Source: a virus (lineage: Duplodnaviria > Heunggongvirae > Uroviricota > Caudoviricetes). Taken from it: a stretch of 47,886 nt of DNA. The position numbers were made by a program, and so were the translations under genes. Location of the stretch: the IMG/VR virus record IMGVR_UViG_2563366951_000006; one strand, given 5' to 3'. Under the pieces are notes generated by a model that saw only the letters and a list, made by a program, of their open reading frames with translations, was not told where the DNA came from and made no database searches. Position 1 is the first letter of the stretch. Every line of letters begins with the position of its first letter. Below, piece by piece: positions 18,125 to 18,494 of this stretch.

Positions 18125-18153
18125 CAGACGTAAAAAAACCGCCGAAGCGGTTT
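18125..18153 (-). terminator. Rho-independent terminator downstream of the moron gene
   Basis: aaaaccgc-ttcg-gcggtttt stem-loop with flanking T tract on the minus strand. Confidence 0.55.
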
Positions 18154-18158
18154 TATTT

Positions 18159-18494
18159 TTATTGTTTCCAGACCTTTTGCCTGGCTTCTTCGAGGTATTC
18201 TTCATCAGTCTTAACCGGTGGGGAATCGACTGCTAAATCACTACCACAGTGCTTACATTTAATAGCTTCGCTTTTGATTAACTCTGCACAGAATGGGCAC
18301 TTCTTCATACCATCGTTTTCAATTAAGTCTTTTTCTTCTGCCGCAACATCCTTCTTTATTACCAAAGAATGTACAAAAGCAATTATAAATAGCAGAGCAC
18401 CATACACCCACCATGCAAAGAAAGATCTTCCTTTGCTTTGAGCAATTAAGGCTGGAATTAAGCCTATAACAATTGAAACTAGTAAAATTTCCAT
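18159..18494 (-). CDS. Membrane protein with C-terminal zinc ribbon (moron)
   Basis: Two N-terminal hydrophobic helices; CPFC...CKHC zinc ribbon; AT-rich; own terminator; inserted between G/T and tape measure. Confidence 0.6.
   Translation of the reverse strand: [111 protein letters not shown]

Follow-up and report, generated by a model that had tools for sequence, protein, structure and literature searches.

A probable moron encoding a predicted membrane zinc-ribbon protein before the tape measure gene of an HK97-like Escherichia coli prophage

We analyzed a stretch of 47,886 nucleotides of viral DNA (IMG/VR record IMGVR_UViG_2563366951_000006, hereafter the window) and in it a small gene at 18159..18494, on the minus strand, which encodes a 111-residue protein of PHROG 8436 with a predicted membrane hairpin and a predicted zinc ribbon. 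The gene lies between the tail gene T and the tape measure gene, and it is very probably a moron, a self-contained and horizontally exchanged cassette in an HK97-like prophage of Escherichia coli. The best hypothesis for its function, drawn by analogy with known proteins, is superinfection exclusion through a block of genome entry at the inner membrane, which we propose tentatively and at somewhat less than even chances. The combined explanation that joins a moron cassette, expression in the prophage and a block of entry is the best that we can offer, and its likelihood falls just short of even. The slot, the moron as a kind of element and the catalogued gene family are already known; what is new is this occupant at the best-known moron site. 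A sequence-only reading of the window had suggested a moron here, and its claims are revisited below together with the evidence that bears on them.

The junction of gene T and the tape measure gene

Upstream of the gene, on the same strand, lie gene T (18549..18827; Pfam Phage_tail_T, E 1.5e-20) and the tail assembly chaperone gene G (18836..19219; Pfam Phage_TAC_1, E 5.5e-60). Downstream lies an open reading frame (ORF) of 1163 residues (14621..18112, minus strand) whose equivalents are annotated as tape measure genes in phages FSL SP-016, LAU1 and HK97; homologous loci carry TMP_3, Phage_HK97_TLTM and Tape_meas_lam_C at this position. The placement between G/T and the tape measure gene that the sequence-only reading had given is therefore correct. 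The DNA of G and T is 98.8% identical to that of HK97 genes 13 and 14 (100% for the T protein), and the identity ends at the stop codon of T.

We surveyed what follows T in 80 IMG/VR loci in which the T protein shows at least 96% identity to that of the window; 72 of them have the tape measure gene on the fragment and could be scored. The slot at this junction spans 276-562 bp and is never empty in the 72 scorable relatives. In these and in the window it is always occupied by one of six unrelated small proteins that are targeted to the envelope. With the window included (73 loci in all), the zinc-ribbon protein fills the slot in 26 loci, gp15 in 12, a secreted protein of about 100 residues in 10, and lipoproteins of 121, 113 and 78 residues in 10, 9 and 6 loci, respectively. 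All slots are low in GC (0.32-0.44), and each cargo brings a distinct hairpin and T-run of its own, which immediately precede the ribosome-binding site of the tape measure gene. Tape measure proteins (TMPs) that are 98-99% identical to that of the window over the first 150 residues were found with four of the six cargos. The cassette with these flanks occurs in only 4 of 5426 complete E. coli genomes.

These patterns speak to the possibility that the gene encodes a conserved tail-assembly or virion component of the G/T-TMP module. Such a role would agree with the 80 IMG/VR loci that carry homologues at least 61% identical, all of which (80/80) have the gene inside the tail operon, in the T-to-TMP slot, in the same orientation and with the same low GC. 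However, the association of near-identical TMPs with four different cargos excludes a role in tail assembly, and the interchange of six unrelated cargos between near-identical flanks indicates that the tail does not need the zinc-ribbon protein. Furthermore, phages isolated in viable form that share T and/or TMP with the window (HK97, AsXd-1 and LAU1) lack the gene and carry other genes in the slot, the product is a predicted membrane protein whose gene has a terminator before the TMP gene, and a homologue in Microcystis phage Mae-JY04 occupies the slot on the opposite strand. A part in building the tail can consequently be considered effectively refuted. Instead of homologues with an assembly role in every relative, comparison with related prophages found the zinc-ribbon gene replaced by unrelated cargos, HK97 itself bearing the unrelated gp15.

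The term moron was first used for HK97 gene 15 (PMC3594210), and the window gene shares the traits that define such elements: it is an extra gene at a boundary of a conserved gene order that is replaced in close relatives, its base composition differs from that of the surrounding genes (as it does in all homologous loci), and it has its own predicted terminator. The GC content of the gene is 0.38, and windows of 200 nt fall to 0.345-0.38 compared to about 0.55 in the flanks. GC at third codon positions (GC3) is likewise low at 0.32, where T, G, the tube gene and the TMP gene have values of 0.51-0.65, so the AT-richness already remarked upon in the sequence-only reading is not a mere matter of amino acid composition. 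The strong hairpin with a T tract that it had listed is recovered as a predicted intrinsic terminator at 18132..18154 on the minus strand, with an 8-bp stem, a UUCG loop and a U7 tract. Read from 18154 to 18132, it consists of AAAACCGC-UUCG-GCGGUUUU followed by UUU, it begins four bases past the stop codon, and it stands directly before the TMP ribosome-binding site GGAG (18122..18125). A segment of 53 nt folds with -14.3 kcal/mol (z = -3.45), none of 200 shuffles folding equally well, and the predicted terminator is kept across homologous cassettes, with compensatory variants in the stem.

A promoter-like element at the other end of the cassette emerged only from comparative alignment, as a strict consensus promoter scan of the window cassette found none. 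In the window, a -35-like hexamer GTGACT (18547..18552) overlaps the TGA stop codon of T, a -10-like hexamer TAGGAT (18524..18529) lies 29 nt 5' of the ATG, and a ribosome-binding site GGGG (18502..18505) lies 7 nt 5' of it, all on the minus strand; G-rich runs occupy the position of this last site in homologous cassettes. Among 54 unique upstream regions of such cassettes, GTGAC[A/T] or TTGATA was found 17 nt 5' of TAGGAT in 39, including loci with a different T end, and the conserved GTGAC[A/T]-17 nt-TAGGAT pair stands 27-33 nt before the ATG. TAGGATT was present in 45 of the 54, and a divergent subgroup has TATGAT or TATTAT in its place; in one locus (L069) TTGATA replaces the usual -35 hexamer with the 17-nt spacing to TAGGAT intact. 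Since the element is kept where gene T ends differently, it travels with the cargo. Replacement in relatives, a composition that is foreign at synonymous sites, a terminator of its own and a conserved element that resembles a promoter thus all support the reading of the gene as a moron.

The edges of the slot were also compared. Slot examples drawn from IMG/VR loci L102-L178 (L144, L125, L119, L145 and L106) were set against the window junction (18122..18154), where a conserved CG[T/C]CTGGAG follows the T-run and precedes the TMP start, as it does with three other cargo types. This motif could be a right-hand crossover point for cassette exchange; the left boundary of the slot is CAGTGAC at the T stop codon. 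Four of the six cargo-specific terminators share a CCGC...GCGG core, and their stems differ.

The zinc-ribbon protein, its family and its possible function

The gene starts with ATG and ends with TAA, and residues 1-111 of its product fall on positions 1-110 of the phrog_8436 profile (E 1e-53), which makes it a full-length member. Of the 111-residue ORF in the sequence-only reading, the strand, which is minus, is all that needs correction. The two transmembrane helices that it had predicted are recovered as a hydrophobic hairpin of residues 2-21 and 25-46 (18357..18491, minus strand) around a conserved S-K-G-R-S-F loop. Kyte-Doolittle windows exceed 1.6 when centered on residues 8-13 and 31-41, and AlphaFold2 models both helices with predicted local distance difference test (pLDDT) values of 80-92, for a mean of 75 over the entire protein and a predicted template modeling score of 0.32. 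Residues G11, P14, K21, G22, F25, W28, W29, Y31 and H42 are invariant in the family alignment. The CPFC...CKHC motif, also seen at the outset, is a predicted Cys4 zinc ribbon of residues 63-87 (18234..18308, minus strand): it scores 30.6 bits against Pfam Zn_ribbon_3 (PF13248; gathering cut-off 27, E 2e-7), and its four cysteines (C66-P-F-C69 ... C80-K-H-C83) are invariant in 61 homologues. In Foldseek the ribbon region superposes on zinc fingers of the RanBP2/NZF type with a root-mean-square deviation of about 1.1 Å, a weak match (E >0.1). A C-terminal acidic helix modeled by AlphaFold2 (residues 97-110; 18165..18206, minus strand) varies across the family. The ORF is a genuine gene, strongly constrained by purifying selection; dN/dS is 0.04-0.07 between alleles that are 92-95% identical in protein, at a dS of about 0.9 that nearly saturates synonymous sites.

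Homologues that are 99% identical are named 'zinc ribbon domain-containing protein' in Enterobacter, Salmonella, Citrobacter and E. coli. Apart from the homologues at least 61% identical, a word-indexed search found 1116 homologous 90% clusters, and a profile search of 1.84 billion representatives gave 186 matches at E<=1e-30 and 3371 at E<=1e-10. The helical hairpin and the ribbon form the conserved core of the family, and the C-terminus may be a short helix, a third transmembrane helix, a soluble domain of about 90 residues or extra ribbons; domain fusions in the long members told us nothing about function.

Unrelated phages, whose hosts are Klebsiella, Pseudomonas, Serratia, Edwardsiella, Vibrio, Cronobacter and Microcystis, carry relatives of the gene in their tail or baseplate modules. 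These relatives lie directly 5' of the tape measure gene in a prophage of Klebsiella whose tail module (Phage_tube_2, Phage_YdaY, TMP_4) is unrelated and in Pseudomonas phages PP9W2 and D14C, beside a lipoprotein-like ORF in the Mae-JY04 slot mentioned above, between L and K in Edwardsiella, between K and the next tail gene in Serratia, and between the baseplate spike and baseplate genes in a myovirus-type module of Klebsiella. The same ribbon is joined to other anchors 5' of the tape measure gene in Klebsiella ST405phi1.3, 3' of it in phiES15, and between K and I in Vibrio P2. Strict adjacency to the tape measure gene was considered as a family trait and dropped, as relatives also occur at L-K, K-I, TMP-M and baseplate junctions and at two sites outside tail modules. 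From its sequence contexts, the family pattern is that of mobile cargo of tail-operon junctions. Some of these loci hold further small genes. In PP9W2 a second moron-like ORF (locus L007, 2521..2937) in the same slot has a lipoprotein-type signal and resembles BamE in Pfam (E 2.7e-4). Mae-JY04 likewise has a second ORF of this sort with such a signal (L009, 3312..3650), and there the pair lies on the strand opposite the tail genes. In a Klebsiella michiganensis prophage (L184, 991..6780), the T-TMP slot contains five genes, encoding a 118-residue ORF, a 173-residue zinc-ribbon protein, Arc/Mnt-type repressors and a P22-type antirepressor. In the same heavily loaded operon, a KilA-N/P63C gene and an insertion sequence (rve transposase) separate the tube and chaperone genes.

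The moron would comprise a promoter, a ribosome-binding site, one gene and a terminator at the T/TMP junction. In a lysogen, a weak sigma-70 promoter (GTGACT-17-TAGGAT) would drive the gene and transcription would end at the hairpin, short of the tape measure gene; in lytic growth, late transcription under antitermination would pass through the hairpin. The product would insert in the inner membrane as a helical hairpin with the zinc ribbon in the cytoplasm and would block the entry of the genomes of incoming siphoviruses there, as HK97 gp15 and T4 Imm do, its target being the tape-measure-dependent channel or a host co-factor. The position shared with gp15 and the fusion of the ribbon to Imm_superinfect domains strengthen the hypothesis of exclusion, which also agrees with the tail or baseplate setting of the relatives and with the envelope targeting of every alternative cargo.

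Several observations weigh against this proposal. The two-helix domain has no Pfam match to Imm_superinfect (PF14373) at E<=1, and hhalign of the N-terminal domain of the family against the Imm domain gave 53% probability over 22 columns that cover only helix 1 and the loop. The protein matches neither YebO (PF13974) nor PHROG 5031, its sequence being unrelated to that of gp15. A search of PADLOC-DB 2.0 returned only ribbon-level matches of E 1e-3 or weaker, searches of NCBIfam and PDB sequences and Foldseek found nothing significant beyond generic zinc fingers, and in the literature we found no paper or experiment that treats this zinc-ribbon family as a moron or exclusion protein. No particular TMP is inherited together with the cargo, and the varied tail junctions at which relatives occur make the element a 'tail-operon moron' and not one with a specific link to the tape measure. 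The promoter score of the single window sequence is weak (8/12, matched by 16% of shuffles). Finally, the charges leave the topology ambiguous under the positive-inside rule, the loop having +2.1 K/R and the C-terminal flank 3.2 K/R but 3.8 D/E. The prediction of topology in the sequence-only reading consequently stands for the two helices, and charge counts do not settle the side on which the ribbon lies. This side is most likely the cytoplasmic face, which is favored only indirectly: sister architectures have basic residues between ribbon and anchor, some relatives bear several Cys4 ribbons, and Cys4 zinc sites require a reducing compartment.

Distant members of the family open another perspective. 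Two such proteins with two transmembrane helices and a ribbon (P0256 and P0096, on metagenome contigs L195, L197 and L198) adjoin genes for a YgjP-like metalloprotease, a major facilitator superfamily (MFS) transporter and a DNA ligase. These apparently non-phage neighbors also weigh against the proposal, since they suggest that the ancestral function may be unrelated to phages, and the phage cargo may derive from a widespread cellular family of small membrane proteins. The gene could then be lysogenic-conversion cargo, encoding a small inner-membrane regulator of a host transporter, a stress response or an envelope process. The very large size of the family at E<=1e-10, the contexts with the YgjP-like protease and the MFS transporter, the membership of gp15 itself in the host YebO family and the lack of a match in the defense database would all fit this view. 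It is nevertheless unlikely, given that all phage-borne relatives examined sit in a structural or tail operon or in an immunity region, that fusions of the ribbon to the Imm_superinfect domain recur, and that the alternative cargos of the slot include a proven exclusion protein.

The predicted cytoplasmic ribbon could also be read as a plausible module for protein recognition, given its weak structural matches to the protein-binding RanBP2/NZF fingers. As a membrane-anchored sensor of a phage protein such as TMP, the product might act after entry, either blocking the tail assembly of the invader in the manner of Tab or Tai, or collapsing the membrane in abortive infection. Prophage morons that hit TMP after entry do exist, namely Tab of JBD26 (PMC10884400) and Tai (PMC11364771), and longer relatives of our protein have extra C-terminal domains. 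However, Tab needs anti-Tab (PMC10884400), whereas the window cassette has no partner or counter-defense gene. A blocker of its own near-identical class of TMP would require a gene for self-immunity, and none is seen. Tab is moreover soluble and encoded between terminase genes, and similarity in PADLOC goes no further than chance-level matches to the ribbon. On balance, defense after entry seems quite unlikely.

The size of the protein, its two transmembrane helices and its charged C-terminus also recall class II holins and pinholins. Since the gene is co-oriented with the late operon, its product would also be made late, so that it might be a holin-like membrane protein or one that sets the timing of lysis, and the N-terminal domain of a related family (phiES15 gp43) matches holin_4 at chance level (E 0.088). 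The prophage, however, is already equipped for lysis by holin and endolysin genes at 29205..29970, and the window gene lies outside this lysis cassette and matches no holin family. It also has a promoter-like element and a terminator of its own, the other occupants of the slot include lipoproteins, and HK97 and its relatives lyse without a zinc-ribbon protein. A function in lysis is therefore highly improbable.

Exclusion at the inner membrane remains our preferred hypothesis, and it would have consequences beyond the window. A widespread family (hundreds of clusters at 50% identity) would join the short list of inner-membrane exclusion proteins, with candidates in the tail operons of Enterobacterales, Pseudomonas, Vibrio and cyanophages, and would help to clarify the still poorly understood way in which the inner membrane is opened by tape measure proteins. 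The six envelope cargos between near-identical flanks amount to a natural experiment, making isogenic comparisons straightforward. If instead the protein has nothing to do with phages, the element is an ordinary moron whose cargo lacks an assigned function. A broader conjecture, which we find somewhat unlikely, is that membrane-anchored proteins with this ribbon make up a large, modular and unrecognized class of phage-borne entry blockers. The ribbon (KKCP[FY]CAE..[KR]..A.KC[KR][HY]CG) would then be a conserved effector that acts, at the inner membrane, on the tape-measure-dependent DNA channel or a host co-factor. Its anchors (the hairpins of PHROG 8436 and PHROG 8032, Imm_superinfect and single-pass anchors) would be interchangeable, and the cassettes would have spread among junctions of siphovirus and myovirus tail operons.

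Other features of the prophage

The left end of the window (1..1100) contains smpB and the gene for transfer-messenger RNA (tmRNA; 698..1060) and is 99.9% identical to E. coli, so that the prophage appears to be integrated at the tmRNA gene (ssrA) of this host, a classic attachment site. Four tRNA genes are clustered at 30779..31087 on the minus strand, with Gly-tcc, Thr-tgt and Met-cat among them; for the fourth (30935..31008) ARAGORN reports an undetermined identity and a two-base 'anticodon' (ag), and this gene may be degenerate or unusual. Between the major capsid and head-tail connector genes, an ORF of 74 residues (21185..21409, minus strand) ends in a (Glu-Pro)5 repeat, AEPEPEPEPEPA; Cronobacter relatives carry a 61-residue protein of Pfam DUF7210 at the equivalent position.

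A second small ORF with a zinc ribbon, at 30170..30340 on the plus strand, had been described as similar to the one in the cassette, of which it is not a part. The likeness holds for the ribbon, which is 48% identical over 21 residues, and not for the rest of the architecture, as the layout of this 56-residue product is inverted, with the ribbon N-terminal and a single hydrophobic anchor C-terminal. The ORF, which runs on the strand opposite the late genes, adjoins the holin gene and the tRNA cluster. Its product has only 4 homologues in 5.8 billion clusters and none in the phage collection. The stretch from the holin gene to the tRNA cluster (30078..30640) has no megablast match in 50,697 phage records, both flanks having matches, and looks like a second, rare insertion.

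Comparison with known systems

At the level of families, the window protein is a full-length member of PHROG 8436 and of the NCBI group named 'zinc ribbon domain-containing protein', to which no function is assigned. Comparison with P22 SieA and with lipoproteins of the Ltp, Cor and Llp types is one of kind only. These are envelope proteins expressed by prophages that block entry, and they have no homology to the window protein. Genes of these types usually lie in lysogeny or early regions. It is the alternative cargos of the slot, three of which are lipoproteins and one a secreted protein, that are similar in type to the lipoprotein class.

HK97 gp15 is the nearest counterpart in position. 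It resides in the inner membrane and excludes superinfecting phages, whose genome injection it blocks in a manner that depends on the tail (Juhala et al. 2000 and Cumby et al. 2012, both as summarized in PMC3594210). Its gene bears the annotation 'moron product', and a putative terminator stands between it and the tape measure gene. The two elements share the identical slot between T and the TMP gene; each is a small, AT-rich cassette of a single gene whose own terminator immediately precedes the TMP ribosome-binding site, and each has a small inner-membrane product, which in the window is predicted. They differ in that gp15 has 62 residues and one hydrophobic helix, compared to 111 residues, two helices and a Cys4 ribbon in the window protein, and gp15 matches Pfam YebO (E 1.2e-8) and phrog_5031. 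Exclusion activity has been demonstrated for gp15 and is a hypothesis for the window protein.

Imm_superinfect proteins provide the link through the ribbon. According to a 2026 preprint (bioRxiv 10.64898/2026.03.06.709160), T4 Imm blocks the genome conduit by direct binding to its tape measure protein, an action that the preprint likens to that of gp15. Like the window protein, the proteins of PF14373 are small, helical inner-membrane proteins, and many have a ribbon of the motif given above C-terminal to the membrane domain; they differ in that domain, which in the window protein does not match PF14373. To our knowledge, T4 Imm has no zinc ribbon. In gp065 of Pseudomonas phage YMC11/02/R656, the gene for which sits between the tail chaperone and tape measure genes, the same ribbon comes after a Pfam Imm_superinfect domain (E 1.6e-18). 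This layout recurs in 112 of the 120 best homologues of gp065, some of which have ribbons almost identical to that of the window. The assignment of the two-helix domain itself to Imm_superinfect was tried and rejected, for want of a Pfam match and on a borderline hhalign result. A remote relationship of the anchors is nonetheless conceivable, as the PHROG 8436 profile aligns to gp065 over the membrane part and the ribbon (E 1.7e-18), and hence over the Imm region. The ribbon that the window protein shares with Imm_superinfect proteins, as judged by sequence, is the solid part of this comparison.

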